From the sequence record PZ445439.1: 64,000 bases of DNA; one strand, written 5' to 3'. Shown one piece after another: positions 16,951 to 56,039 of this stretch (its first letter is position 1; each line of letters opens with the position of its first letter). The notes under the pieces were generated by a model. It was given only the letters and a program-made list of their open reading frames with translations. It was not told the origin of the DNA and searched no databases. This DNA is from a phage. Position numbers and translations under genes: made by a program.

Positions 16951-17700
16951 ATGGCAAACATTATTCGTTGTAAATTACCAGATGGTGTTCATCGTTTTAA
17001 ACCATTTACGGTAGAAGATTATCGAGATTTTTTGTTAGTTCGAAACGATATAGAACATCGGTCACCACAAGAACAAAAAGAAATAATTACTGATTTAATT
17101 GATGATTATTTTGGAGACTATCCGAAGACTTGGCAACCATTTATATTTTTGCAGGTATTTGTAGGGTCAATAGGTAAAACAAAAGTACCAGTCACATTCG
17201 TATGTCCAAAATGTAAAAAAGAAAAGACAGTTCCATTTGAAATATACCAAAAAGAATTAAAGGAACCTGTTTTTGATGTAGCTAATGTTAAAATTAAATT
17301 AAAGTTTCCTTCTGAGTTTTATGAAAATAAAGCAAAGATGATTACTGAAAATATTCATTCTGTTCAAGTAGATGAAATTTGGTATGATTGGAAGGAAATT
17401 AGCGAGTCTAGTCAAATAGAACTCGTTGACGCCATCGAGATAGAAACATTAGAACAAATTCTCGATGCAATGAATCCTATTAATTTAACTCTACATATGT
17501 CATGCTGTAATAAGTACATTAAAAAATACACTGATATAGTAGACGTGTTTAAGCTATTAGTTAACCCAGATGAGATATTTACTTTTTATCAAATTAATCA
17601 CACACTCGTAAAAAGTAATTATAGCTTAAATTCAATAATGAAAATGATTCCTGCTGAGCGCGGATTCGTATTAAAACTGATTGAGAAGGATAAACAATAA
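16951..17700 (+). CDS. 51: Baseplate hub assembly catalyst gp51 (249 aa)
   Basis: ORF track; synteny; late promoter upstream. Confidence 0.88.
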
Positions 17701-40773: not shown

Positions 40774-41276
40774 TTAAAAATATTTTTTAAAACTCATCAT
40801 AACTTTATCATCAACATCATTATCAATCTGTGCAACAAGATAAGATGACAGTTCTACTTCTTGTGGCGCGGATTGAACATTATCAGAATTAAGATATTCA
40901 CGAATCCAAGGATATGGGTGTTTAACCGGAGCATCGGTAATTGGGCATGGAAGACCACACTGTTTCATACGAGATACAGTTAAGTAATCAATAAAGCTCC
41001 ACATGTTATTTGTATTTAATCCAGGAACATCGCCATCTTTAAATAAATGAACTGCCCAATCTTTTTCTTGGCGGTTAACTTCCATGAAAATATCAACTGC
41101 TTCTTGTTCACACTCTTGAGCAATTTTAACCCATTCATCGCCATCAGTGCCAAGTTGAAGTTGACGAATAATATATTGAGTGCCTTTAAGGTGAAGCTGT
41201 TCATCACGTGCAATGAACTTCATAATCTTGGCATTGCCTTCCATGATTTCCATATTCTTGTGGAAGTTAAAGGTAC
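40774..41276 (-). CDS. nrdB: Ribonucleotide reductase small subunit NrdB, exon 2
   Basis: C-terminal half aligns to class Ia R2 (E. coli NrdB ...[23 protein letters not shown]...); junction codon TGT (Cys) is formed across the splice. Confidence 0.85.
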
Positions 41277-42367
41277 CGTTATGTTCGATTGAGCTCGCTA
41301 ATTCTCAACCCGTTCTCTTATGAACTGCTACATATTACTATGCAGACCAGACTATATCACAATCCCAGAGGGATTCTCCCCATTTCGAGTCGCTTGACCC
41401 TACGTCCGAAGACTAGTCGTTGAACCTTGCTTTGCAATTGTCGCCGTGCCATCGTTTATATGTTGATGGTGATAAATCTTTCTTATCACAATATGGACAA
41501 TTCAATTGAATTCTATTTGGATTTAATTTACATCTGTCATTATGTTTTAGATAAAATCCAGGACCTTTACCAATGTGACCACAAAAATCACATGTGATTT
41601 CTTTTTGTGCAGGATGGGTCCCGTTCTTAACCATTTCTAATGTTTTTGCTGATGTTCTTTTCTTATGGTCTTCTGATAAGAAATGATGTGAACCGTCATT
41701 TACCCGTTTTGATTGAGTTTCTGACTGCATTTTACCACCGCAAAATACATGAGTACCTTCTTTTATAGCTGCAATATTGCGTTCTTTAACTTTTGCAATA
41801 TGCTCAGCTTGTTGAAAATTATGTATACCTAATGCAACTCTATTTAAATTAGATTTACGCTGTATTTCACCGTCTAAAAGATGAAATGTACCATTTTCTA
41901 TCTTAGATTTAATAGAGGCAATATTTTTAGCTCGTACTTCAGGGATATTAAAAATCTGGATTTCTCTAGATTTTGCGGCTTTAGAAGCTAATTCAGAAAT
42001 TTCTTCAGGAGAATATTTCATTCTAAGCTTTATAGCATGACAAGCCTGGTAATCTTTTTGAGCTAAATGTATATCATAATGTTCCTGTATAGAAAGGCAC
42101 ATCAAATTATCTAAATCATTATTTTCACGGTTACCGTCTTTATGATGGATTTCGTATGTTCTTCCATCAGAATCTTTAGGTATAGGTCCGTTAGCATCTA
42201 TCCAAATTTTTCTATAGTTCAATTGTGCATCCTCTTAAAAGTATAATCATATTTATATTATACTAATTAAAGGTGCAAGCAAAACCTTGGCTGCTAGTTT
42301 TCCTATAAAGGACTTTCCAGCAATTAAAGGAGTTTTCGATAAACGTTACCGTTTAAAGGCGCATTTT
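41277..42367 (-). mobile_element. Group I self-splicing intron in nrdB (about 1091 nt) carrying an intact HNH homing endonuclease ORF
   Basis: nrdB reading frame interrupted by in-frame TAA after ...YVSFA; exon ends in U, intron ends in G; spliced frame restores conserved YVSFAC; internal 269-codon ORF. Confidence 0.85.
41413..42222 (-). CDS. Intron-encoded HNH homing endonuclease (I-TevIII-like, 269 aa; apparent non-ATG start)
   Basis: N-terminal HNH motif (EIHHKDGNRENNDLDNL) and C-terminal Cys clusters; 269 aa as recalled for full-length I-TevIII of phage RB3. Confidence 0.85.
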   Translation of the reverse strand: MNYRKIWIDANGPIPKDSDGRTYEIHHKDGNRENNDLDNLMCLSIQEHYDIHLAQKDYQACHAIKLRMKYSPEEISELASKAAKSREIQIFNIPEVRAKNIASIKSKIENGTFHLLDGEIQRKSNLNRVALGIHNFQQAEHIAKVKERNIAAIKEGTHVFCGGKMQSETQSKRVNDGSHHFLSEDHKKRTSAKTLEMVKNGTHPAQKEITCDFCGHIGKGPGFYLKHNDRCKLNPNRIQLNCPYCDKKDLSPSTYKRWHGDNCKARFND

Positions 42368-43043
42368 ACGCAAAAGATACATAAAAACGAATTGCTTCTA
42401 AGGCATTAATAACGTGCAAACAGAGGTAAAGAGATTTCATTAGCTCACGCTTCCAATATGTCTCATGCTCAATAGCATCTTCAATAACGTCTTCGTCTGC
42501 ATTAATTTCTTTTTGGTATTCGATATCAGCTTTAGCGTTTTCCCAATAACGAGCTTTAACCAGAACATCATCATAATATCGTCCGATAGATTCGGCACGC
42601 TTCATAATAGCTTCATCTAATACAATCTCATCAAACACCTTCGATGGATCGGTATAAAGATTTCGCATAATATGAGTGTACGAACGAGAGTGAATAGTTT
42701 CACTGAATGTCCATGTTGCAACCCACGTATCTAATGAAGGGTCGGAAATCAGTGCCATAAGTACCGCAGATGGGGCCCTGCCTTGGATAGAATCTAATAA
42801 TGATTGATACTTAAGATTGTTTGTAAAGATGTCCTGTTGGAACTGAGGAAGCTTATTGAACTGCGCAGAGTCCAACATCAAGTTTACCTCTTCTGGGCGC
42901 CAGAAAAATGACAATTGCTTTTCAATAAGTTCTTCAAAAACTTTATGTCGCTGAATATCATAACGTGCGAGGCCAAGACCAGAACCAAAGAACATTGGTT
43001 CATTCAAAACATCGACTTGTTGTGTGTTAAAAACTGTACTCAT
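42368..43043 (-). CDS. nrdB: Ribonucleotide reductase small subunit NrdB, exon 1
   Basis: N-terminal half; ends ...LEAIRFYVSFA, which aligns with E. coli NrdB immediately before the intron. Confidence 0.85.
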
Positions 43044-43098
43044 TATATTTTCTCACTTAGTTATTAACTCATCCATGAGTAAATTATAATCAAAAGTC

Positions 43099-45354
43099 TT
43101 AAAGCTTACAAGCAGAACAATCTTCAGCTTTAGGTGTTTCTAATTCATAGTCATCTGTACCTGACCCATCACGAGTGTTATGATAGTAGAGGTTTTTTCC
43201 GCCAAAGTACCAGAAGTAAAGCAGATCGTCAAGCATTACTGACATTGGCACTTTACCTTTCTCAAATACTGCAGGGTCATAGTAAGTATTAGCAGAAGCA
43301 GATTGGCACACCCATTTCAACATGATAGCAACTTGGGTTAAATAAGGTTTATTACCTTTCTTAGCAAGTTTCCACGCGTAGTCGTAAAGACCTATGTTAT
43401 GTTCTATATTAGGAACAACCTGACGGAAGTTGCCTTCTTTAGATTCTTTAATACTCACTGGACCCCGCGGCGGTTCAATCCCGTTTGTAGAGTTTGATAC
43501 TTGACTGCTTGACTCACAAGGCATGAGTGCAGACAACGTTGAGTTACGAATTCCATGTTCTTTGAGTTCAGCTCGAAGTTCTTCCCAATCACATACGTAG
43601 TTCGGGGCTGCGATTTGGTCAATCTTTTTATTGTACCAGTCGATAGGTAATTCGCCTCTAGACCATTTAGTGTCTGAATAATACTCGCAACATCCTTTTT
43701 CTTTGGCGAGTTTGATTGATGCTTTGATAAGGCCATATTGCAATCTCTCAAACAATTCATGAGTCAAATCGTTAGCGTCTTCATATGAAGCGAAGTTAGA
43801 AGCTAACCATGCAGCATAGTTCGTAACACCAACACCAAGATTACGACGCTTTTTGGCTTTTAAAGCTTCTGGAACCGGATAATCTTGATAGTCTAACAGG
43901 TTATCAAGTGCACGTACTTGTACTTCAGCAAGTTCATTAATTTTATCTTGGTCTTGCCAATCAAATTTATCTAACACGAATGCAGATAACGTGCATAAAC
44001 CAATTTCAGCATCAGGACCATTCACATCATTAGTTGGAATAGCGATTTCACAACATAAGTTACTCTGACGAATTGGAGCTTTTTCACGAATAAACGGAGT
44101 GTAGTTATTCGTGTTATCAACGAATTGCGGATAAATTCGAGCGGTGCCAGAACGTTCAGTCATGAACAATTCAAAGAGTTCTAGTGCTTTGATTCTTTTC
44201 TTTCTGATTGTTGGGTCTTTTTCAGCTTTCTCATAAAGCTCACGGAATTTATCTTGATCTTCAAAGAACGAGTAGTATAGTTCGCCTGACATTTCGTGAG
44301 GGCTAAATAAAGTAATATAATCATTTTTACCAAGGCGTTCCATCATAAGGTCATTAATCTGAATTCCGTAGTCCATATGTCGAATACGGTTTTCATCCAC
44401 GCCTTTGTTATTTTTCAGAACTAATAGGTTCTCTACTTCTAAGTGCCACATCGGATAATACGCTGTAGCAGCACCACCACGAATACCACCTTGAGAACAA
44501 GATTTTACTGCAGTTTGGAAATGTTTCCAGAATGGAATAACACCCGTATGTCGAACTTCACCCATACCGATCTTAGAACCTTCTGCACGAAGCATACCAA
44601 CGTTGATACCAATACCAGCTCGTTTAGAAATATATTCAATAATTGATGCTGAAGTTTTGTTAATAGATTTTAACGAATCACCGGCTTCAATAACTACACA
44701 ACTAGAGAACTGGCGAGTTGGAGTACGAGCACCTGCCATAATTGGAGTAGGCAATGAAACTTGATGAGTAGAAACGGCATCATAAAAACGAATAATATGT
44801 TTCAAACGGTCGTGAGTTTCGTCTTGATGTAAGGCCATGCCAATAGCCATGATAGCAAACTGGGGAGTTTCATAAATCTTCCCAGTTGTTTTATCTTTAA
44901 CTAGATATTTTTCTTTAAGCTGCATAGCACCAGCATAAGTCAGGTCAAAGTCTCGTTCATGTTTAATCTGTGAATCGAGATAAATGATTTCTTCTGCTGA
45001 ATATTGAGACAACAGCTCAGGGTCATATTTGCCTTCATTAACACAATAAGAAATATGGTCGATAAAAGCAGGCGGTTCAAACTGCCCATATACATCTTTA
45101 CGAAGTGCAAACATTAGCCCTTTGGCGGCGACATACTGATAATCAGGTTCTTCGACAGAAATCGAGTTAGCTGCAACTTTAATACAAATCTTCTGGATAT
45201 CTTTGGTGCTCATCCCGTCGACAAGATGGGTCTTAATTTCTTCGTACAATTCATATGGGTCAATTTGTGTTCCTTCACATTGCCAAGTTAAGACTTGAAT
45301 AATTTTCTGTGCATCAAAATTTTGGGATACACCACTGCTCTTAGTTACTTGCAT
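43099..45354 (-). CDS. nrdA: Ribonucleotide reductase large subunit NrdA (751 aa)
   Basis: ORF track; class Ia R1 sequence; C-terminal Cys pair; matches recalled T4 NrdA. Confidence 0.95.
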   Translation of the reverse strand: MQVTKSSGVSQNFDAQKIIQVLTWQCEGTQIDPYELYEEIKTHLVDGMSTKDIQKICIKVAANSISVEEPDYQYVAAKGLMFALRKDVYGQFEPPAFIDHISYCVNEGKYDPELLSQYSAEEIIYLDSQIKHERDFDLTYAGAMQLKEKYLVKDKTTGKIYETPQFAIMAIGMALHQDETHDRLKHIIRFYDAVSTHQVSLPTPIMAGARTPTRQFSSCVVIEAGDSLKSINKTSASIIEYISKRAGIGINVGMLRAEGSKIGMGEVRHTGVIPFWKHFQTAVKSCSQGGIRGGAATAYYPMWHLEVENLLVLKNNKGVDENRIRHMDYGIQINDLMMERLGKNDYITLFSPHEMSGELYYSFFEDQDKFRELYEKAEKDPTIRKKRIKALELFELFMTERSGTARIYPQFVDNTNNYTPFIREKAPIRQSNLCCEIAIPTNDVNGPDAEIGLCTLSAFVLDKFDWQDQDKINELAEVQVRALDNLLDYQDYPVPEALKAKKRRNLGVGVTNYAAWLASNFASYEDANDLTHELFERLQYGLIKASIKLAKEKGCCEYYSDTKWSRGELPIDWYNKKIDQIAAPNYVCDWEELRAELKEHGIRNSTLSALMPCESSSQVSNSTNGIEPPRGPVSIKESKEGNFRQVVPNIEHNIGLYDYAWKLAKKGNKPYLTQVAIMLKWVCQSASANTYYDPAVFEKGKVPMSVMLDDLLYFWYFGGKNLYYHNTRDGSGTDDYELETPKAEDCSACKL

Positions 45355-45441
45355 ATATTCCTCAGTATAGGTTGATAGACATTACTCCAAACGGGATAGT
45401 ATTTATCCCGTTAATTTATTATACACTTTTAAACTGAAGCG

Positions 45442-45696
45442 TTAATTATCCTCGGCAATAATTTCTTCGTATTCTTTAGGTGTCAAGACTGTGATATTGA
45501 AATAAACCAACGGTTCTTTTTCTATACCGAATCCACCACAAAATTCACGATATTCATAAATTCGTTCATGTGAATAACAAATGAATCGTTCACCTTTAAC
45601 TGTGATTTCACTATTTGGTGAAGGGATATCCAGTTCACTTGGATTTTTCATTTCAAAAATTGTGGTGCCATATGAATTAATAAAACGTAAAATCAT
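45442..45696 (-). CDS. Hypothetical protein between nrdA and td (T4 nrdA.1/nrdA.2 position)
   Basis: ORF track; ATG start. Confidence 0.6.
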   Translation of the reverse strand: MILRFINSYGTTIFEMKNPSELDIPSPNSEITVKGERFICYSHERIYEYREFCGGFGIEKEPLVYFNITVLTPKEYEEIIAEDN

Positions 45697-45697
45697 T

Positions 45698-46558
45698 TTA
45701 TACCGCCATTTTAGCTTTGATAGCTGGATGAGATTCGTAATTTTTAAGAACGAAATCAGAATGTGTCATCGTTCCAGTAACCCAGTCCATTTGGATTTTT
45801 GTAGGCCAATTCTCAAAATTACTAGGCCAATTAATTTCAAGAGAACATAACTCTTTAGGTTCACGACGAAGAACTTCTTTGCATTGTTCTACATGATTGC
45901 TGTAGATATGCGTGTTGCCGCCTGAGAACACTAAATCACCTGGGATAAGGTTACACATCTTCGCTACAATATGCGTCAAGGCAGCGTACGAGGCAATGTT
46001 GAATGGCAGGCCCAAGAAAACATCTACACTGCGTTGATACCATTGTAAATCAAGATGCCCATTACGCACATTAAATTGATAGAACATATGACAAGGAGGA
46101 AGAGCCATTTGGTCAATTTCTGCAGGGTTCCATGCAGAAACTATTTGACGACGATCATTAGGAAGAGCTTTAATACGGTCGATAGTTTTGACCAATTGGT
46201 CTACACCACCAAAATCACGCCATTGCTTACCATAAATAGGACCAAGTTCGCCGCTATGATATCCAAGGTCTTTTGCCTGATTTTCATAGTTGTCGTCCCA
46301 AATAGTTTTACCTTGAATAAGACTACCATGAGTACGAATACGCAAATCATTAACATTGGTAGAACCAGACATGAACCACAGTAACTCGGCAATACAAGCT
46401 TTCCATGCTAATTTCTTAGTTGTTACTGCAGGGAATCCTTTAGTCAGATCCCAACGTAATTTAGTTCCGAACAGGGCAATAGTGCCGGTGCCTGTACGGT
46501 CGTCTGTTTCGTAGCCATTTTCTAGGATATCATTAATCAGGTATTGGTATTGTTTCAT
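45698..46558 (-). CDS. td: Thymidylate synthase, uninterrupted (286 aa)
   Basis: ORF track; continuous 286-aa ORF the same length as spliced T4 Td; no intron. Confidence 0.95.
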   Translation of the reverse strand: MKQYQYLINDILENGYETDDRTGTGTIALFGTKLRWDLTKGFPAVTTKKLAWKACIAELLWFMSGSTNVNDLRIRTHGSLIQGKTIWDDNYENQAKDLGYHSGELGPIYGKQWRDFGGVDQLVKTIDRIKALPNDRRQIVSAWNPAEIDQMALPPCHMFYQFNVRNGHLDLQWYQRSVDVFLGLPFNIASYAALTHIVAKMCNLIPGDLVFSGGNTHIYSNHVEQCKEVLRREPKELCSLEINWPSNFENWPTKIQMDWVTGTMTHSDFVLKNYESHPAIKAKMAV

Positions 46559-47142
46559 TTATAAACGCTCTCAGTAATTTCGGTGAGTTCATCGATTCTG
46601 TAGTAATGAGATTCTACCATAGAACGTTGAAGCATAATATCTTGGACGAAATCTTTATCAAGTTGAACATCGGAATTAACACGACATTTCTTAATGATTT
46701 TAGTCATCACGATTTCATCGGCATAAGGCAGTGCTTGTTTAAGTAGAGCAGGACCGCCGATAACAGATACATTAACATGTTCAGTAGAAAGTTTAAACGG
46801 TACATCAGTTGCAGGGCTAAACAGGTTAATTTCACCACCTGTTACCAAGGTAATAAATTCAGATTGGGTGATATAGAACCGTGCAAGTTCATCAGTTTTA
46901 GTCCTAGGCAGTTTTCTGGCCATATCAGTGACAACCACATGAGTACGATCTGGGAGTAGACGAGGTAATGATGCAAAAGTCTTAGCACCCATAACCATTA
47001 CAGTGTTTTTAGTGCGAGCAACAAAGTTACTCATATCTTGTTTGATATGCTTCCATGGAAGTCCATCACCTAATCCAAAAGCATATTCCAGTTTATCATC
47101 AACTGTTTTAGATGGTGCGCATGCGAATACTAATTTAAGCAT
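46555..47142 (-). CDS. frd: Dihydrofolate reductase (195 aa)
   Basis: ORF track; DHFR-like, about 60 percent similar to recalled T4 Frd; ATGA overlap with td. Confidence 0.9.
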   Translation of the reverse strand: MLKLVFACAPSKTVDDKLEYAFGLGDGLPWKHIKQDMSNFVARTKNTVMVMGAKTFASLPRLLPDRTHVVVTDMARKLPRTKTDELARFYITQSEFITLVTGGEINLFSPATDVPFKLSTEHVNVSVIGGPALLKQALPYADEIVMTKIIKKCRVNSDVQLDKDFVQDIMLQRSMVESHYYRIDELTEITESVYK

Positions 47143-47383
47143 TTTTAAGTCCTTTAATAACTTTTTGGATTTGTGATTTAGACGAAACTAGTTCTGTCTG
47201 AATTTCCAAACCATCGGTTTGGTCAAATGTTGTAACACAAACGCGAGGTTTTGTTGTGTATCGCCCAGACAAATCAAATGCGTCGCCAATGAATTCGGCC
47301 AAATCCGAATGGTCTAAATTAACTGAAGTATAAACTTCATATCCGACATCAGCGCCTTGAGAGTATTCAACAACAACATTCAT
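47135..47383 (-). CDS. Hypothetical protein (T4 frd.1 position)
   Basis: ORF track; ATG start. Confidence 0.6.
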   Translation of the reverse strand: MNVVVEYSQGADVGYEVYTSVNLDHSDLAEFIGDAFDLSGRYTTKPRVCVTTFDQTDGLEIQTELVSSKSQIQKVIKGLKNA

Positions 47384-47385
47384 AA

Positions 47386-47635
47386 TTATTTCCTCAGATT
47401 TTTCTTAACAACTTTCCAATCAACTTTAAACGATTCAACATCAGAGTGGTGAATCCAGAATCCTGCACTTTCACCATCTTCGTAGAGTGGACATCCATCA
47501 CATTCTTCGTTCCAACCCATTTCACGTAAAGCTTCTTCAGCTTGTTCAAGGAGTTCAGCGTCTTTACCGACGATGTTGAAGTACCATTTACCTCTAACTT
47601 CAGAATCTTTGATGCTCTGACGTTGCAATCTCATT
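47386..47635 (-). CDS. Hypothetical protein (T4 frd.2 position), start set to ATG 47635 with AGGAG Shine-Dalgarno (track ORF begins at GTG 47697)
   Basis: ORF track; manual start check. Confidence 0.6.
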
Positions 47636-47696
47636 TTATTCTCCTTCACTTTTGATTTGATAGGGCTACTATAACATAACCCTATCTGATTGTACA

Positions 47697-48089
47697 CTAC
47701 TTTTTAAAAGTTTTTTGCAAAAGTTCGATGATTTCGTCGACGTTGGTTTCATCTACGATACAATGGATTTTTGTTACACCTAAAGCTATACCTTCGTTAG
47801 TAGGTTGAGGCTTTACTATATCTACCTCAGTAAAGTATTTGAACTCGTCAGGATAAATCTCAAAATAAGTTTCAATTTCACCACCGGCAGAACATACAGT
47901 ACCATCTTCCATAGTTACACTTACTACGTTTGACGTATCGCTATCATAATCAGGTTCCATTCCGTTTACAACAAAACTAGGCCCGTGGAGTTCAATCAAT
48001 TTTAACATCTTAGCGTTATTGTGTGGTGCTTCTTGAACAAAGTCATCTTTAAATAAAGGGTTAATGATATAAGATTTTCCGATTTCCAT
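47697..48089 (-). CDS. Hypothetical protein (T4 frd.3 position)
   Basis: ORF track; ATG start; early-promoter-like element upstream. Confidence 0.65.
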   Translation of the reverse strand: MEIGKSYIINPLFKDDFVQEAPHNNAKMLKLIELHGPSFVVNGMEPDYDSDTSNVVSVTMEDGTVCSAGGEIETYFEIYPDEFKYFTEVDIVKPQPTNEGIALGVTKIHCIVDETNVDEIIELLQKTFKK

Positions 48090-48141
48090 TTTGATTTCCT
48101 CATGTTGTTGATAGGTCTATACTAACACATCCAGGGAAGAA

Positions 48142-48147
48142 GTAAAC
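48142..48147 (-). promoter_or_regulatory. Early-promoter -35 box GTTTAC (minus strand) upstream of the frd.3-position gene
   Basis: Plus gtaaac; TAGTAT -10 candidate 17 nt downstream on minus strand. Confidence 0.45.
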
Positions 48148-48178
48148 AACTTTTTCGGCAATTTACAGATACTCAAAA

Positions 48179-48196
48179 GGGAGACCGAAGTCTCCC
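48179..48196 (-). terminator. Rho-independent terminator after gene 32 (minus strand)
   Basis: gggagac-cgaa-gtctccc; minus strand followed by TTTTGAGTATC. Confidence 0.75.
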
Positions 48197-48202
48197 AATT
48201 TA

Positions 48203-49105
48203 TTATAAACCAGCTAACAGGTCATCGAGGTCGCCATCATCAGAGGATGAGGTAGAGCTCATGAAGTCATCTTCAGTTTTTGCAGAACTAAAGGCTTCCA
48301 TGTCTTTATCAAAATCGTCAAGGTCAGAAGCAACTTTATCTGCAACAGAAGCTGCTGCGGCTGCTGCACCACCAAGAGCGGCAGTACCAAGAACCTTAGC
48401 GAAAGATTCATTTAATTTTTCAAAGGATTTGAACTGGTCTTTAGCCGTCAAAGTAGTAAGGTCTACCATCTGGTCATATAGTTCTTTCTGGAATGCTTCA
48501 TCATTAATACGAGGAATTTCAGATTGACCCAAGAATTTAGATTCGTCATAGTTGCTAAAACCGGAAACCTGCTTAGCTTTCAGAACGAAGTTGGCACCTT
48601 CAAACGGACAAGTAACATCAACTGGAGTTTCACCCATTTCGGTATCAACAGCAATCATTGCATTGATTTTGTCCCAAATCTTTTTACCGAAACGATATTT
48701 AAATACTTTACCTTCGTTATCTGGAGCTTGAGGGTCTTTAACAACCAGAATATTAGCCCAATAAGAAGTTTTACGTTTCAGTTGAGAATATTCATTTTTG
48801 TTGGTATTGTACAGGTCATTTTTACTAATGTACTGACATACAGGACAAGAGTCATAATCACCATGTGTAGAAGAGCAATTTTCAATATACCATTTACCAT
48901 TTTTCTTGAAACCATGGTTAACAAGAATTGCAAATGGTAGTGCATCATCAGTTTTTGCTGGCAAGAAACGAATTACCGCTTGACCATTACCGGATGCATC
49001 TAGCTTCAGCTTCCATTCGCCTTTATCTTCTGAAGAGAAACCTTTGTTACCATTCAGTTTAGCCATTTGAGCAGCGAGGTCAGCAGTAGATTTACGTTTA
49101 AACAT
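48203..49105 (-). CDS. 32: Single-stranded DNA-binding protein gp32 (300 aa)
   Basis: ORF track; near-identical to recalled T4 gp32; acidic C-terminus; terminator downstream. Confidence 0.97.
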
Positions 49106-49194
49106 GGATTATTACCTTTTATTTAGATTATTTAATTTATTTACAGTTGGTTGCTACGACACTTATACCTCGTAGCTGGTATGATTTATTTATA
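49106..49194 (-). promoter_or_regulatory. Gene 32 leader: late promoter TATAAATA (plus 49187-49194), conserved hairpin (49153-49176) and AU-rich unstructured tract, i.e. the gp32 translational operator region
   Basis: gctacga...tcgtagc hairpin followed on the mRNA by repeated UAAAUA-type AU-rich sequence up to the AUG; gp32 autoregulation is established for T4. Confidence 0.65.
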
Positions 49195-49223
49195 AAGTAA
49201 TTTTAACACACAAGAAATAAAGC

Positions 49224-49877
49224 TTAATACTTACATGATTTGATTGTTTCTATGAACAATTTCTTAGCAACATTTCCATCGATTTGAAGTATTTTTCGAT
49301 ATGCCTTTAATTTGGTAGAATAATTTTGCCAGACTAAGTTATCGGTGAGTTCGTCGTGCTTATCTATAATATTCAAAAACGAGTCCAACAATAAGAAAGT
49401 CTCAAATGAAATTATATTGCTTTGTAACAATTTAAATATGTAGCTCGACTGAACTTTATTATTATAATCAAATATCTCTTGAAGCGCACTAACTTCCACT
49501 TTCTTACTGAAATAGTAGATGTTACGTACGTCTTCAGCAAACGTCTCTTTAGCTTGTTTGAGACGTCCAATATATTCCCTATAGAAAACTAATGCATCAG
49601 CGTCTGATATCTCACCAATCCATGCGTCTTGGTTAGCAACTAAGTTGCTTATGAATATCAAGGTGAGTTCCTTCAATTTATATTTCTCTGCTAGTTTTTC
49701 AAAGAAATATTTATCTCGGCGTTTTTGATACGCATTATCCGAAACACGCATGCGCCAGTTATATTTGATTACGTCATACCGACCACCAAAGTGGTTTTTG
49801 CACATCAAGTATAGTTTATATACTGATTTACCGTTAATATAACGTTCTCCGTCAGGAGGCATGCGTATTTTAATCAT
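49224..49877 (-). CDS. 59: gp59 helicase loader (217 aa)
   Basis: ORF track; highly similar to recalled T4 gp59. Confidence 0.93.
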   Translation of the reverse strand: MIKIRMPPDGERYINGKSVYKLYLMCKNHFGGRYDVIKYNWRMRVSDNAYQKRRDKYFFEKLAEKYKLKELTLIFISNLVANQDAWIGEISDADALVFYREYIGRLKQAKETFAEDVRNIYYFSKKVEVSALQEIFDYNNKVQSSYIFKLLQSNIISFETFLLLDSFLNIIDKHDELTDNLVWQNYSTKLKAYRKILQIDGNVAKKLFIETIKSCKY

Positions 49878-50553
49878 AGTTCCATCCAGGCCATTTTGAA
49901 GATTTAAGTCTATACGTAACTAGAGATGCAGAAATATTAAAAACATCCGAAACTTCTGTGCATGATGAGTATTTTATACCATCAATAATTATAGGTTTTT
50001 GTTTTTTAATAGTTCTTTCTTTAGAATGCGGCTTTGAATTTGCTATTCTAAGAGCTTCTTTGGTTGAATCAGGCATCGGCTTATTCGTTTTTCGCCCTTT
50101 TCGGACTTTACTCAAAGCTAATTTATGAGCTTCAGATAGTTTCTTACCCTTATTAGGGGATGGTATTTTTCTTTCTAATCTGGTTTTAGATACTTTAGCC
50201 TTAGTCTCTTCAGATCTAGGTTTCCCTATTTTAGAAAGTGAAATAGCCCTTTTAGCTTCATCACTTTGTTTTTTACCAGGGCCACCTTTACCACCTGGAA
50301 CCAGGTTATAAGTATCAGTTCGCAAAACAAAATCTTCATTAACCAATTCTGCTTCTTTTTTATAGGCGTCCTTGTCATTATCATATTCATAAAGAACTTC
50401 AGTATAAAAATTTTTTAGCCCGTATTTAGCTTTGGCCGCTAATATAGCGCGACCAGACCCAATATACCAATCTTTCTCTTTATGTTTTTTGTGTACGCCT
50501 ATATAAATTTTACCATTTATTTTATTGGTAGTTTTATACACAACGTATTTCAT
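49870..50553 (-). CDS. GIY-YIG homing endonuclease, Seg-type (227 aa)
   Basis: N-terminal GIY-YIG module (YVVYKTTNKINGKIYIGV); Lys-rich linker with repeated S-x-x-x-K-x-A-x-S-like (NUMOD3-type) motifs; overlaps genes 59 and 33 by a few nt. Confidence 0.8.
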   Translation of the reverse strand: MKYVVYKTTNKINGKIYIGVHKKHKEKDWYIGSGRAILAAKAKYGLKNFYTEVLYEYDNDKDAYKKEAELVNEDFVLRTDTYNLVPGGKGGPGKKQSDEAKRAISLSKIGKPRSEETKAKVSKTRLERKIPSPNKGKKLSEAHKLALSKVRKGRKTNKPMPDSTKEALRIANSKPHSKERTIKKQKPIIIDGIKYSSCTEVSDVFNISASLVTYRLKSSKWPGWNYD

Positions 50554-50888
50554 AATAAGAAATCTAACGTATTAGTTTTTTCACCACGAGCAACTGATGG
50601 GCGAAGCATGTTTTCGTCAATTGCTTCGCTTGTAATTTTTTCAATAATTCCTGTAGGAATAAATTTAGCAAATTGTGTTTCTGGAATAGAATTTTCTTCC
50701 AAGAAAGCAGTTGTTGCTTCTAAATAAGACATACCGAATTGTTCAACCATGGATTCGATAATGAATCCGTTTTCTTGTCTGTCAAGCAATTTAGCGATAT
50801 CATCTTTATCGTGTTTTACTGCTAATTCTTGTTCAGATAAACCGGCCTCATCAACCGGTTTAATATCACTTAGTGAAAACTGTGTCAT
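50550..50888 (-). CDS. 33: gp33 late transcription co-activator (112 aa)
   Basis: ORF track; near-identical to recalled T4 gp33. Confidence 0.92.
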   Translation of the reverse strand: MTQFSLSDIKPVDEAGLSEQELAVKHDKDDIAKLLDRQENGFIIESMVEQFGMSYLEATTAFLEENSIPETQFAKFIPTGIIEKITSEAIDENMLRPSVARGEKTNTLDFLL

Positions 50889-51135
50889 AAAGCTCGACTA
50901 CCTCTTCGTTTTCAGCTTCAAATTGGTCACGAGCGTCTTTATGATAAAGAGCTAACAAACGATTAAACATTTTTCCATCGACACCAAGCTCTTCTTTAGC
51001 ACGAGTACGAATGTCTTTAATCAGTTCATTATAACCAGAAATTTTAAGTTTGTTATCGGAAGCTTCCTTGACTAGTTTAGCCAGTTCTTCACCATGCACA
51101 TCTTGATTAAATTCAACTGCTTCTTTCTTAGCCAT
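50866..51135 (-). CDS. dsbA: DsbA double-stranded DNA-binding protein (89 aa from ATG 51135 with GAGG Shine-Dalgarno)
   Basis: ORF track; T4 DsbA size; synteny between rnh and 33. Confidence 0.8.
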   Translation of the reverse strand: MAKKEAVEFNQDVHGEELAKLVKEASDNKLKISGYNELIKDIRTRAKEELGVDGKMFNRLLALYHKDARDQFEAENEEVVELYDTVFTK

Positions 51136-51142
51136 GTTTACC

Positions 51143-52060
51143 TCAGAATTCATTAATTACACTTGTTAATTTAGAAAGACCAGATTTTACAAAGTATGAA
51201 TAAATCTTGCCTTTAGGTTGTTGTTTATATGAGTTATAATACTCTATAATGGTTGAAGCAATATTATCAGGGATATAATCAAAATCAATGAGAACCAAAT
51301 TTTCTTGATACCGTTTATATTCTTCTGCACTTAATAATACTTCAGCTTGAGAACGGTCATTGGCAATTGCTTCAATAATCGTTGTTTTCATGCTCGGAGT
51401 TCGTTCACCATCAACTCTGGTAAACCAGAAGTCGCCACGAACTCGAACAGATGCAACACCATCCTTACGGTCACCTTTAAGAATTTTAGTCATGCAATCA
51501 ATTTCAGCAGAACCATTCTTAATTTTAACCCATTTTTTCTGTGGTGGCGACCACTGTTTAACGTTAGGATATTTGTGTAATTGTGTAAAGTCACCATCTG
51601 ATGCAACAATACATACTTTATGTCCAGCTAATGACAAATATTTAGTTAATACACCGATATGGTCATCCGCTTCATACTTGTCAATATCCATTACAACGTA
51701 TGGCATGTATTTCTTAATCTCATCAACAACTTGATGGAGTGCAGTAAAATATCCTTCCCAATCCCACTTTGAAGCTTCACGATCGGTTTTACGATTTTTC
51801 TTGTAATAGTAAGCAAAGTCACGACGCCAATAACCCGAAGTAGCATTATCCATACATAATACAAATTTTGTATAGCCTTGCTTACGGAACATCACTACGT
51901 TTTTACGAATTGAATTCAAGATTACATGGCGAACCATCGGAACGGTAATTTTATCGCCGTCTTCAAAGTTGTTTAATGCGGCTGCCAATGCAATGTTACT
52001 AAAGTCAGCAAGTGCAATACCTTCTTTGTAATCTTCATCTAACATCATTTCTAAATCCAT
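51143..52060 (-). CDS. rnh: RNase H / 5-prime-3-prime exonuclease (305 aa)
   Basis: ORF track; FEN-family features; T4 Rnh size; synteny upstream of gene 34. Confidence 0.92.
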   Translation of the reverse strand: MDLEMMLDEDYKEGIALADFSNIALAAALNNFEDGDKITVPMVRHVILNSIRKNVVMFRKQGYTKFVLCMDNATSGYWRRDFAYYYKKNRKTDREASKWDWEGYFTALHQVVDEIKKYMPYVVMDIDKYEADDHIGVLTKYLSLAGHKVCIVASDGDFTQLHKYPNVKQWSPPQKKWVKIKNGSAEIDCMTKILKGDRKDGVASVRVRGDFWFTRVDGERTPSMKTTIIEAIANDRSQAEVLLSAEEYKRYQENLVLIDFDYIPDNIASTIIEYYNSYKQQPKGKIYSYFVKSGLSKLTSVINEF

Positions 52061-52115
52061 ATGAACCTCTTGTTCAGTTAGTCAACTTGTCTATAGTAAC
52101 ACACTCATTTGAAAG

Positions 52116-52121
52116 CGTAAA
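52116..52121 (-). promoter_or_regulatory. Early-promoter -35 box GTTTAC (minus strand) upstream of rnh
   Basis: Plus gtaaac; TACTAT -10 candidate 18 nt downstream on minus strand. Confidence 0.45.
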
Positions 52122-52125
52122 CTGG

Positions 52126-52133
52126 TATAAATA
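52126..52133 (+). promoter_or_regulatory. Late promoter TATAAATA for gene 34
   Basis: Exact motif about 30 nt upstream of ATG. Confidence 0.7.
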
Positions 52134-52163
52134 AGTATTATTGAAACAATAAAGGAAAAACGA

Positions 52164-55100
52164 ATGGCCGACATCAAACGTAAGTTCAGAGCCGAAGACG
52201 GTCTGGACGCCGGTGGCGACAAGATTGTTAACGTAGCATTAGCCGACCGTACAGTAGGTACTGATGGCGTAAACGTTGACTTCCTGGTACAAGAAAACAC
52301 CGTTCAAGTATATGATTCTACGCGTGGATATAACAAAGGATTTGTTGTTCTTTATGACAACCGTTTATATCAAGCAATAAATGATATCGTGTCTCCTTCC
52401 GGGGCATTTAACCTTTTACAATGGCGTGCAGTTCGTACCGATGCACAATGGATAACTGTCGCTTCTGGGACTTATCAACTTTCTTCAGGTGAATCGATTT
52501 CGGTTAACACTGGTGCCGGCAATGATATGGTTTTCACGTTGCCAAATACGCCGGTTGATGGTGATACTGTTGTTTTGGCTGATATTGGTGGAAGAACCGG
52601 GACAGTTAAAGTACAGATTAACGCGTCTGTGCAGAGTATTTTAAACTTTAGAGGTGAACAAGTTCGTACAGTTTTAATGACGCGCCCACGTTCACAACTA
52701 TTGTTTGTGTTTAGTAATCGTTTGTGGCAGATGTATATTACCGATTATGGTAAAGAATCAATCACTGTTACACCTGCGACACCATATCAAGCACAAGCAA
52801 ATGATTTTATCGTTCGTCGTTTTACTAGTGCAGCACCAATCAACATTACACTTCCACGTAATGCTAACAATGGTGATATAATCAGCCTAGTCGATTTAGA
52901 TAGATTAAACCCACTATATCATACAATTGTTAAAACATTTGATGATACAACGTCTATTGGTGAAGTCGGGACTCATATTGCCGAAGGCAGAAATGACTCT
53001 GACGCGTTTTTTGTTTTTGATGCTGCAAATAGTTTATGGCGTATATGGGAAGGCGACCAGAAATCGCGTCTTCGTATTATCCGTGCGGATTCAAATATTC
53101 GTCCAAATGAAGAAGTTCTTATTTTTGGCACAAATAACGCTACAGCCGGAACTATTAATCTTACGCTGCCTTCCGGAATTTTGAGTGGTGACACTGTTAA
53201 AATTTCAATGAACTACATGCGTAAAGGCCAAACAGTAAAAATTAAAGCTGCCGAAGGTGATACAATTGCTTCTTCTGTTGCATTGCTTCAGTTCCCTAAA
53301 CGTTCTGAATATCCACCTGATGCTCAATGGGTCTCTGTTACTGAACTAGAATTCAATGGCACTACTTCATATGTTCCTGTATTAAAATTAGCATATATCG
53401 AAGACACCGTTGCTGGTACACGTTATTGGGTTGTTCAACAAAACGTCCCAACTGTAGAACGTGTTGATGCTGGAACTGATGCTACACGAGCTCGTTTAGG
53501 TGTTATTGCTCTTGCTACTCAAGCGCAAGCAAATGTTGATTTAGAGAATACTCCAGCTAAAGAAGTTGCTATTACTCCGGAAACATTGGCAAATCGTACA
53601 GCAACTGAAGCTCGACGTGGTATCGCTAAAATTGCCACAACAGCACAAGTTAACCAGAATTCCACAGCATCATTTGTGGACGATACTATTGTTACGCCTA
53701 AAAAACTAAATGAGCGTACAGCAACTGAAACTCGTCGCGGTCTTGCTGAAATTGCTACTCAGGCCGAAACCGATGCCGGTCTTGATGACACAACGATTAT
53801 TACACCTAAGAAATTGCAGGCACGTCAGGGCTCTGAAACACTATCTGGTATAGTTAAATATGTATCAACTACTTCTGCTACTCCTGCTGAAACTCGTGGA
53901 ACCGCAGGCACTAACGTTTATAATAAAACCGTAAATAATTTAACTATTTCTCCTAAAGCCCTTGACCAATATAAAGCAACTTATGCTCAACAAGGTGCGG
54001 TAATTTTAGCTGTTGATAGTGAAGTAATTGCTGGTCAATCACAAGCAGGTTATTCTCATGCTGTAGTAACTCCTGAAACACTACATAAGAAAACTTCTAC
54101 TGATGGACGTATTGGTTTAATTGAAATTGCTACGCAAGCAGAAACTAATGCTGGGACTGATTATACACGCGCAGTAACACCTAAGACGTTAAATGATAGG
54201 AAAGCTACGGAAGGATTATCCGGCATAGCCGAACTTGCTACGCAAGTTGAATTTGATACTGGAACTGATGATACTCGTATCTCGACTCCACTGAAAATTA
54301 AAACTCATTTTGATTCTTCTGACCGTACCAGTGTTAATTCTGATTCCGGACTTATTGAAGAAGGAACCTTGTGGAACCATTATACTCTTGATATTTCTAA
54401 AGCAAATGAAACACAACGCGGTACACTTCGCGTAGCGACACAGGCAGAATCTAATGCAGGAACTTTAGATGATGTTCTTATTACTCCTAAAAAGCTTTTA
54501 GGGACTAAGTCCACTGAAACGTCTGAAGGCGTAATTAAGGTTGCTACTCAGGCTGAAACTGTAACAGGAACTTCTGCTAATACTGCTGTATCTCCTAAGA
54601 ATTTAAAATGGATTGTCCAGAAAGAACCAACATGGGCTGCTACTACAGCAATTCGCGGATTCGTTAAAACTTCATCCGGTTCTATTACATTCGTTGGTAA
54701 TGATACAGTCGGTTCTACACAACCTTTAGAATCATATGAGAAAAATAGCTATGCAGTATCACCATATGAATTAAACCGTGTACTTGCTAACTATTTGCCA
54801 TTGAAAGCTAAAGCCGTAGATAGTAATTTATTAGATGGCCTAGATTCATCTCAGTTCATTCGTAGGGACATTGCACAGACGGTTAATGGTTCACTATCCT
54901 TAACCCAACAAACGAATCTGAGTGCCCCTCTTGTATCAACTAGTACTGCTACGTTTGGTGGTTCAGTTTCGGCAAATAGTACATTAACTATTTCTAACTC
55001 TGGAACAGCTACTCGTCTGATTTTTGAAAAAGGACCTCAAACTGGAACTAACCCAGCACAGACGATGACTATCAGAGTTTGGGGAAATGAATTTGGCGGT

Positions 55101-56039
55101 GGTTCAGATACAACACGTTCTACTGTATTTGAAGTTGGCGATGAAACATCTAATCACTTTTATTCTCAACGTAATAAAGCCGGGAATATAACGTTTAGTA
55201 TCAATGGTACTGTGATGCCAATAAATGTTAACGCTTCAGGCACGTTAAATGCGAATGGCGTTGCAACATTTGGTCGTTCAGTTACAGCCAATGGCGAATT
55301 CATTAGCAAGTCTGCAAATGCTTTCAGAGCAATTAGTGGTGATTACGGATTCTTTATTCGCAATGATGCTACTAACACCTATTTTATGCTTACTGCATCA
55401 GGTGACCAGACTGGCGGATTTAATGGATTACGTCCTTTAGCTATTAACAATGCATCTGGTCAAGTAACGATTGGTGAAAGCTTAATCATTGCTAAAGGTG
55501 CTACTATAAATTCAGGTGGTTTAACAGTTAACTCAAGAATTCGTTCTCAGGGTTCTAAAACTGCTGATTTATACACTCGTGCTCCTACTGCTGATACAGT
55601 CGGATTCTGGTCAATTGACGTCAATGATTCAGCTACATATAACCAATTCCCGGGTTATTTTAAAATGGTTGAAAAAACTAATGAAGTGACTGGACTTCCA
55701 TACTTAGAGCGCGGTGAAGAAGTTAAATCTCCTGGTACGCTGACTCAGTTTGGTAACACACTTGATTCGCTTTACCAAGATTGGATTACTTATCCAACGA
55801 CGCCAGAAGCGCGTACCACTCGCTGGACACGTACATGGCAGAAAACCAAAAACTCTTGGTCAAGTTTTGTTCAGGTATTTGATGGAGGTAACCCTCCTCA
55901 GCCGTCTGATATCGGTGCTTTACCATCTGATAATGCTACAATGGGGAATCTTACTATTCGTGATTTCTTACGAATTGGTAATGTTCGCATTGTTCCTGAC
56001 CCAGTGAATAAAACTGTTAAATTTGAATGGGTTGAATAA
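52164..56039 (+). CDS. 34: Long tail fibre proximal subunit gp34 (1291 aa)
   Basis: ORF track; size and N-terminus as T4 gp34; late promoter upstream. Confidence 0.95.
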   Translation: MADIKRKFRAEDGLDAGGDKIVNVALADRTVGTDGVNVDFLVQENTVQVYDSTRGYNKGFVVLYDNRLYQAINDIVSPSGAFNLLQWRAVRTDAQWITVASGTYQLSSGESISVNTGAGNDMVFTLPNTPVDGDTVVLADIGGRTGTVKVQINASVQSILNFRGEQVRTVLMTRPRSQLLFVFSNRLWQMYITDYGKESITVTPATPYQAQANDFIVRRFTSAAPINITLPRNANNGDIISLVDLDRLNPLYHTIVKTFDDTTSIGEVGTHIAEGRNDSDAFFVFDAANSLWRIWEGDQKSRLRIIRADSNIRPNEEVLIFGTNNATAGTINLTLPSGILSGDTVKISMNYMRKGQTVKIKAAEGDTIASSVALLQFPKRSEYPPDAQWVSVTELEFNGTTSYVPVLKLAYIEDTVAGTRYWVVQQNVPTVERVDAGTDATRARLGVIALATQAQANVDLENTPAKEVAITPETLANRTATEARRGIAKIATTAQVNQNSTASFVDDTIVTPKKLNERTATETRRGLAEIATQAETDAGLDDTTIITPKKLQARQGSETLSGIVKYVSTTSATPAETRGTAGTNVYNKTVNNLTISPKALDQYKATYAQQGAVILAVDSEVIAGQSQAGYSHAVVTPETLHKKTSTDGRIGLIEIATQAETNAGTDYTRAVTPKTLNDRKATEGLSGIAELATQVEFDTGTDDTRISTPLKIKTHFDSSDRTSVNSDSGLIEEGTLWNHYTLDISKANETQRGTLRVATQAESNAGTLDDVLITPKKLLGTKSTETSEGVIKVATQAETVTGTSANTAVSPKNLKWIVQKEPTWAATTAIRGFVKTSSGSITFVGNDTVGSTQPLESYEKNSYAVSPYELNRVLANYLPLKAKAVDSNLLDGLDSSQFIRRDIAQTVNGSLSLTQQTNLSAPLVSTSTATFGGSVSANSTLTISNSGTATRLIFEKGPQTGTNPAQTMTIRVWGNEFGGGSDTTRSTVFEVGDETSNHFYSQRNKAGNITFSINGTVMPINVNASGTLNANGVATFGRSVTANGEFISKSANAFRAISGDYGFFIRNDATNTYFMLTASGDQTGGFNGLRPLAINNASGQVTIGESLIIAKGATINSGGLTVNSRIRSQGSKTADLYTRAPTADTVGFWSIDVNDSATYNQFPGYFKMVEKTNEVTGLPYLERGEEVKSPGTLTQFGNTLDSLYQDWITYPTTPEARTTRWTRTWQKTKNSWSSFVQVFDGGNPPQPSDIGALPSDNATMGNLTIRDFLRIGNVRIVPDPVNKTVKFEWVE

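Follow-up and report, generated by a model that had tools for sequence, protein, structure and literature searches.

An RB3-type group I intron with a full-length I-TevIII gene in phage nrdB, and a possible mosaic edge beside it

What interrupts the nrdB gene of the phage recorded as PZ445439.1, and does the interruption leave a gene from which a whole NrdB protein could still be made? The DNA considered is a stretch of 64,000 nucleotides (nt), referred to here as the window; all features of the locus lie on its minus strand. The nrdA gene occupies 45354-43099 and is separated by 55 nt from an open reading frame (ORF) for NrdB that starts MSTVFNT... at 43043. As read from the sequence and the list of ORFs, this frame runs to ...RFYVSFA, with GCG T as its terminal letters and the T at 42368, and the NrdB frame is picked up again about 1.1 kb downstream. 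The interruption is almost certainly a copy of the nrdB group I intron of phage RB3, complete with a full-length gene for the homing endonuclease I-TevIII. The element is already known and is common, its full-length form being present in 84 public phage records.

The intervening stretch (41277..42367) comprises 1091 nt, opening with AAAATGCGCC... at 42367 and closing with ...CATAACG at 41277; in RNA letters its 5' end is AAAAUGCGCC and its 3' end CAUAACG. Exon 1 (42368..43043, 676 nt) holds codons 1-225 and the first base of Cys226, while exon 2 (40774..41276, 503 nt including the stop) begins GT ACC TTT at 41276, so that the last U of exon 1 and the first GU of exon 2 form the Cys226 codon. 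Joining of the exons yields a coding sequence (CDS) of 1179 nt for an NrdB of 392 amino acids (aa), ...FYVSFAC/TFNFHKNMEIMEGNAK..., and the ligated RNA junction, by sequence, is ...UUUGCGU/GUACCUUU. The spliced product matches the Pfam family Ribonuc_red_sm (E 4e-36) and aligns with structures of Escherichia coli R2 (E 6e-126) without a break across the junction (AIRFYVSFACSFAFAE), exon 2 continuing the R2 sequence. A 217-nt query spanning the spliced junction is found in one piece in about 500 intron-less phage records, the best at 95-97% identity. The boundary is unambiguous and cannot slide, since intron-less alleles such as that of G50 (GCGT/GTACC) are colinear with one placement only. An earlier note, made from the letters of the window, had given exon and intron coordinates that prove exact to the base by both the sequence and the colinear alleles, and the TGT codon that it had proposed to restore YVSFAC is the one formed at this junction. 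At the 5' splice site, the last U of the exon and the first two A's of the intron make an in-frame UAA (42366..42368), which would halt ribosomes on unspliced RNA at the intron boundary.

The identity of the element rests in large part on its relatives. Matches to the 1091-nt intron are present in 128 phage records; in 84 of them, 80% or more of the query is covered, almost always at 98.5-99.8% identity. The intron of RB3 (KM606994) is equally long and has 4 differences in 1091 positions (99.6% identical), and the copies of WFL6982 and WilhelmHis are 99.8% identical to that of the window. In the RB3 record, nrdB is annotated as a two-piece joined CDS that encloses I-TevIII. Identity of 99.6-99.8% to the nrdB intron as annotated in RB3 and its relatives puts the intron call far beyond chance. 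The RB3 intron and I-TevIII are reportedly associated with the work of Eddy and Gold in 1991.

The RNA is predicted to fold as a phage-type group I ribozyme, consisting of P1-P9.2 with P7.1, P7.2, and a P7 pseudoknot. An unconstrained minimum-free-energy (MFE) fold of the window's core, with the ORF deleted, gives P1 with a U.G pair at the splice site, P2 with a GUAA loop, P3, P4, P5, P6/P6a, P7.1 with a UUCG loop, P7.2, P8, P9 with a GUAA loop, and two more 3' hairpins. The named P1-P9.2 structure, together with the P7 pseudoknot (GACUA/UAGUC), was placed on nine aligned variants, all distinct and drawn from four genera. All 90 of the 90 named pairs form in the window sequence, and 99.9% of the cells in the alignment hold standard pairs. 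Compensatory change affects nine pairs: three in P2, one in P5 (with three pair types), two in P9.2, and one each in P6c, P7.2, and P9. The observed values are reached by none of 500 shuffles, and the slid controls do not contain one compensatory pair.

The two halves of the ribozyme lie on either side of the ORF. The 5' half (42279..42355), consisting of P2, the 5' strand of P3, P4, P5, and the 5' strands of P6 and P6a, is placed by the helix map, by the compensatory pairs of P2 and P5, and by the Rfam match of an ORF-less allele. The 3' half (41287..41435), consisting of the 3' strands of P6a and P6, J6/7, P7, P7.1, P7.2, the 3' strand of P3, P8, P9, P9.1, and P9.2, is placed by the same map, by a partial match to the Rfam family RF00028, and by the compensatory pairs of P7.2, P9, and P9.2. 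The strands of P7 are 41418-41414 with 41354-41350, and the terminal base of the intron is a G (omega-G) at 41277, directly before exon 2. In P1 (42359..42371), which is present in the MFE fold, the exon sequence GCGU pairs with the intron guide GCGC and a U-1.G6 pair stands at the splice site; all four pairs are invariant among the nine variants. Exon 1 ends in GCG/U, with G at position -2, in all intron-plus alleles and in GCA/U in the intron-less JK36 and teqhad. As this exon G pairs with C7 of the guide sequence, the flanking base that P1 requires travels with the intron. The T4 nrdB intron is described as self-splicing in reviews (PMC2790892, PMC2988022).

The 3' core alone (P7-P3'-P8-P7'-P9; window 41277-41440) matches hundreds of unrelated phage records at 70-92% identity over 40-150 nt. 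T7-like Yersinia phages and Pseudoalteromonas phage pYD6-A are among them, an example being NC_020849.1 at 16993-17079. Many of these matches fall in stretches annotated as 'none' or inside DNA polymerase or ATPase genes, and for this reason they are probably group I introns that have gone unannotated.

The I-TevIII ORF (41413..42222) sits inside the P6 loop and comprises 269 codons and a stop, with UUG as its start. Its product is identical to RB3 I-TevIII at 268 of 269 residues, with the same start, stop, and position, the sole difference being D23Y. Pfam HNH_3 is matched at aa 4-48 (E 6e-13), and the HNH catalytic motif at aa 26-48 (42079..42147) has all four of H26, H27, N39, and H48, the residues that alanine substitution in the RB3 enzyme showed to be needed for cleavage (Robbins et al. 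2007, PMC1865063). A motif search finds two zinc fingers of the form CX2CX12-13HX3C at aa 211-231 and 242-263 (41434..41592); C211, C214, C242, and C245, which in RB3 I-TevIII bind zinc and are required for DNA binding (PMC1865063), are present. The homing frequency of the RB3 intron is 4.3% per recipient, compared with less than 0.1% for the T4 deletion form (PMC1865063). The earlier note had described an intact I-TevIII-type HNH ORF of 269 codons with C-terminal Cys clusters and a non-ATG start, and had set the full-length RB3 form against the deletion form of T4. The domain and motif searches agree with the first part; the start is TTG, as it is in the curated RB3 I-TevIII CDS; and alignment of the window intron with those of RB3 (99.6%) and T4 (598 nt) upholds the distinction between the two forms.

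Two further matches of the endonuclease were set aside. Comparison of the ORF product with solved structures by sequence has as its best match an unrelated deaminase (E 0.29), which is not meaningful, and a borderline Pfam FlgM match on aa 74-114 (26.2 bits, cut-off 25) is probably due to chance. At 41413-41441, the last nine I-TevIII codons and the stop coincide with parts of the ribozyme core, namely P6a and P6 (their 3' strands), J6/7, and P7 (its 5' strand); this stretch is hence constrained by both protein and RNA, and ribosomes that finish the ORF would traverse the core.

How well does the identification of a full-length, RB3-type group I intron withstand the evidence that points the other way? 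Several observations weigh against it. At the curated gathering threshold, Rfam reports no families at all in the whole 64-kb window, so that the group I intron is missed. Covariation is silent on the core helices, as P3, P4, P6, P7, and P8 are invariant over the nine variants. Lastly, residue 23 is a Y, rather than the D of RB3, three residues before the catalytic H26, and the enzyme that was assayed is the RB3 form.

The Rfam result is traced to the insert of about 785 nt that carries the ORF in P6 between the core halves, and not to a defective core. A permissive scan recovers RF00028 as a partial match at 41328-41568, covering the 3' half only (33.9 bits, E 1.4e-6); weak matches in the ORF region (rseX, HIV_GSL3, and snoRNAs, E 1.5-9) are ascribed to chance. 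The ORF-less allele of PD112, with an intron of 304 nt, scores 68.6 bits with RF00028 against a cut-off of 50, and its core equals that of the window except for a 2-nt deletion in a loop. The covariance scan suggested in the earlier note as a check therefore gives a divided answer, negative for the window at the gathering threshold, confined to the 3' half when run permissively, and positive for the ORF-less allele. The same note had held that a covariance model finding no group I core would speak against the intron; such a rule would have misfired, because the ORF insert in P6 splits the core. The claim of a group I intron in nrdB itself stands, on the RB3 identity, the fold, and the Rfam match of the ORF-less allele. 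Owing to the invariance of P3, P4, P6, P7, and P8, support for these core helices is drawn from the Rfam model and from the 3'-core matches in other phages. As for residue 23, Y is the commoner state and is also found in HY03, F1, WFL6982, and the divergent Salmonella phage S16.

Two other accounts of the interruption were weighed against the intron. According to one, a free-standing homing endonuclease gene has inserted into nrdB and split it for good, and the halves are translated separately and reassemble, for which mobE in the nrd genes of Aeromonas phage Aeh1 is said to be a precedent. Many GenBank records do give two nrdB CDSs ('nrdB_1/nrdB_2') around a 'hypothetical protein' or 'homing endonuclease'. 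However, a codon is divided across the boundary here (U/GU), exon 2 has no start codon at its boundary and its first ATG comes eight codons in, at 41253, the interruption shows covariation in a group I fold that is intact, and the intron to which it is 99.6% identical has its exons joined in the curated annotation; a permanently split gene is extremely unlikely. The other account is that of a decaying, non-functional copy that has lost splicing or mobility, which would make nrdB a pseudogene or the endonuclease dead, as in T4. The element often decays in nature, with deletion forms of 598, 592, 420, 309, and 304 nt, and residue 23 is unlike that of the assayed RB3 enzyme. Yet the ORF is full length with all of the validated residues, the core is that of the PD112 allele above the Rfam threshold save for the 2-nt loop deletion, every named pair forms in the window (90/90), only four substitutions separate the intron from that of RB3, and Y23 is common to four other full-length copies including the divergent one of S16. 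Decay is accordingly judged very improbable, and the intact RB3-type intron remains the preferred identification.

The deletion forms are of interest in their own right. The public records make up a decay series of 1091, 598, 592, 420, 309, and 304 nt, and the full-length intron carries short direct repeats that bound natural deletions. The 491-nt deletion of T4 is bounded by the imperfect direct repeats GAAGAACATA and GAAGACCATA (window 42155-42164 with 41664-41673), and the 785-nt loss of PD112 that leaves its ORF-less intron lies between two copies of ACAATTG at the start and end of the ORF (42220-42226 and 41435-41441). Pairwise MAFFT alignment proved unreliable for placing the deletions of SG1, DCP80, and PD112, and a multiple alignment was used. 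The T4 intron is immobile by itself and is mobilised in trans by mobE (PMC2790892).

Expression of the endonuclease appears to be controlled as in other T4 introns. The extension of P6 (P6b/P6c; 42226..42277) folds as a hairpin in which CCUUU pairs with the Shine-Dalgarno sequence, and its pairs are kept in the nine variants. The fold of 42280-42215 has a free energy of -14.9 kcal/mol (z = -3.78), and none of 200 shuffles is equally stable. A pattern search places a match to the T4 late-promoter consensus, TATAAATA, at 42250..42257, in the hairpin loop and 28 nt upstream of the ORF start; a modelled RNA that begins at 42244, just downstream of this box, is unstructured (-0.7 kcal/mol). The Shine-Dalgarno sequence AAGAGG (42231..42236) stands 8 nt upstream of the UUG, in agreement with the spacing of about 8 nt in T4 intron ORFs (PMC2988022). 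In the T4 intron endonucleases, including I-TevIII, the ribosome-binding site is buried in a hairpin and freed only on late transcripts (PMC2988022). By analogy, the documented control would consist of the hairpin that buries the Shine-Dalgarno sequence and the internal late promoter, both of which are present, and the start codon would be secondary; it is plausible that the UUG start limits expression further. In a generic scan of the locus for sigma-70 promoters and terminators, counts equalled the shuffled expectation; T4 late promoters belong to another class. Just upstream of the TATAAATA box, the sequence GCACCTTTAATTAGTA at 42261-42276 resembles the start of exon 2, GTACCTTTAACTTCCA at 41261-41276, in 11 of 16 positions, as compared by eye. 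A published suggestion is that I-TevIII may repress its own promoter by binding to an operator similar to the homing site (PMC2988022), and the likeness of GCACCTTTAATTAGTA to GTACCTTTAACTTCCA fits this suggestion, making the former a candidate operator.

For the window copy, splicing, cleavage, homing, and late expression are expected from the RB3 and T4 literature, and a course of events may be proposed on that basis. The intron RNA would excise itself and join exon 1, ...GCG U, to exon 2, GU ACC..., giving the NrdB of 392 aa. On read-through RNA of the early and middle periods, the hairpin would hide the Shine-Dalgarno sequence and ORF expression would probably be held back, and transcripts initiated late at the internal TATAAATA box would probably free the ribosome-binding site of the ORF, from which a weak UUG start may lower the yield again. 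I-TevIII would thus be made late in infection and would bind intron-less nrdB as a dimer, target alleles of this kind existing in about 500 records. Repair from the intron-bearing genome would then copy in the intron together with adjoining exon sequence, which is homing.

Does the intron also mark a junction between two kinds of phage genome? The nrdA gene shares 98-99% identity with Mosigvirus genomes and only 60-80% with most other records, and denA-rnlA is 98-99% identical to Tequatrovirus genomes. In a local identity map with JK36 (Mosigvirus) and teqhad (Tequatrovirus) as references, the window at about 15-41 kb is 94-100% identical to teqhad and mostly 65-85% identical to JK36, the relation is reversed at about 43-55 kb (72-81% to teqhad, 96.6-99.9% to JK36), and at about 56-58 kb the values are 94-96% and 67-80%, respectively. 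A Mosigvirus-like block of about 13 kb (~42400-55500), 98-99% identical to JK36, hence contains exon 1 of nrdB, nrdA, td, frd, gene 32, gene 59, rnh, and the 5' part of gene 34, and outside this block the mapped window is 94-100% Tequatrovirus-like. The right edge of the block lies at about 55000-56000, inside gene 34. The left crossover zone, from Mosigvirus-like to Tequatrovirus-like sequence, is placed at approximately 41223..41254, 23-54 nt downstream of the insertion site, by informative sites relative to JK36 and teqhad and by other intron-plus alleles. Exon 1 is mainly Mosigvirus-like, being mixed over a short stretch close to its 5' end and uniformly Mosigvirus-like in its 3' half as far as the junction; in exon 2, the earliest informative sites (CDS 693 and 699) are still Mosigvirus-like, and from about CDS 720-730 the sequence is Tequatrovirus-like through the end of nrdB and beyond. 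The single-nucleotide differences within the intron (two to WFL6982, four to RB3, six to F1) form no pattern and are too few to place a crossover. Given two to four switches over some 49 kb, one of them would fall no more than 150 nt from the insertion site with a probability that the author estimates at about 1-2.5%.

Two readings of this mosaic edge compete. If the genome is real, the intron may mark the edge of an intergeneric exchange of about 13 kb, natural and intron-linked, between genera that are about 75% identical; this reading is held tentatively, at slightly less than an even chance. The exchange could have arisen from a break induced by I-TevIII and resolved with a crossover, or the intron, which is more than 99% identical in both genera, could have served as a portable patch of homology. 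Alternatively, the edge could be a chimera of assembly, produced when an assembler crossed between co-occurring genomes at the shared 1.1-kb intron (>99% identity), which is a real possibility though on the improbable side. Between the two genera, the intron and the sequence directly beside it hardly differ, and it is at such places that assemblers switch; moreover, the mosaic is present at neither edge in any public phage record, the best matches being 94-95% in one search and 89% in the other. A switch of this sort does not readily account for the return of the 13-kb block to Tequatrovirus-like sequence within gene 34, where the backbones are only about 90% alike. Natural exchange is also documented: the intron-bearing Mosigvirus isolates WFL6982 and FL18 have real Tequatrovirus-like conversion tracts around the intron, which is what homing with co-conversion predicts (PMC2790892).

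Several observations concern the genes beside the intron. The 55 nt between nrdA and nrdB (43044-43098) contain no mobE endonuclease gene. In RB3, T4, G50, and S16, a mobE-type gene of about 730 nt lies between the two genes, different endonuclease genes take this place in SG1 and HY03, and JK36, teqhad, PD112, and F1 are, like the window, without mobE at this spot. The td gene (45698-46558, minus strand) is one unbroken ORF of 286 codons, without the td intron and I-TevI of T4. At 49870-50553 of the minus strand, an ORF of 227 aa adjoining gene 59 encodes a free-standing Seg-type endonuclease, with weak GIY-YIG SegE-type and NUMOD3 matches and a clear match to an I-TevI-type DNA-binding domain. 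Its position coincides with a coverage gap in both JK36 and teqhad, in which the ORF is absent.

The locus has consequences for annotation. Many GenBank and RefSeq records list two nrdB genes and a hypothetical protein, sometimes with spurious antisense ORFs inside the intron. These two-gene annotations, together with the failure of the Rfam threshold, indicate that automated pipelines systematically mis-annotate the locus. In the present record, the proper annotation of nrdB is a single CDS joined across an intron, together with a gene for I-TevIII. More generally, the curated Rfam threshold misses group I introns that bear ORFs, and a negative covariance scan is no disproof of such an intron. 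The intron element itself is ordinary, and the mosaic edge is the only part of wider interest, for which a non-chimeric contig is needed first. In laboratory crosses, homing elements drive or seed the exchange of flanking genes between diverged phages; if it holds true on a real isolate, the mosaic edge would be a natural counterpart of these crosses.

Among known systems, the closest is the nrdB intron of RB3, which has the same gene, insertion site, and length (1091 nt when the boundaries are set alike) and shares 1087 of 1091 bases. It differs by four substitutions, one of them non-synonymous (D23Y in the window). The surroundings are less alike: exon 1 of RB3 is only 81% identical to that of the window, which is Mosigvirus-like, whereas exon 2 is 97.4% identical, and RB3 carries mobE upstream of nrdB while the window does not. 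The T4 nrdB intron (598 nt, with a defective I-TevIII) has the same insertion site and core and is about 98% identical over the shared parts. It lacks 491 nt that are present in the window (42158-41668), with loss of the HNH domain and a shift of frame. The T4 td intron with I-TevI and the nrdD intron with I-TevII are likewise phage group I introns with an endonuclease ORF in genes of nucleotide metabolism, but I-TevI and I-TevII are GIY-YIG monomers and I-TevIII is an HNH dimer. A common logic of control, a sequestered ribosome-binding site with an internal late or middle promoter, extends over the introns of td, nrdD, and nrdB (PMC2988022). With the introns of unrelated phages (Staphylococcus, Bacillus, Pectobacterium, T7-like, and others), only the catalytic core is common; the host genes and peripheral helices differ, and the ORFs are different or absent.

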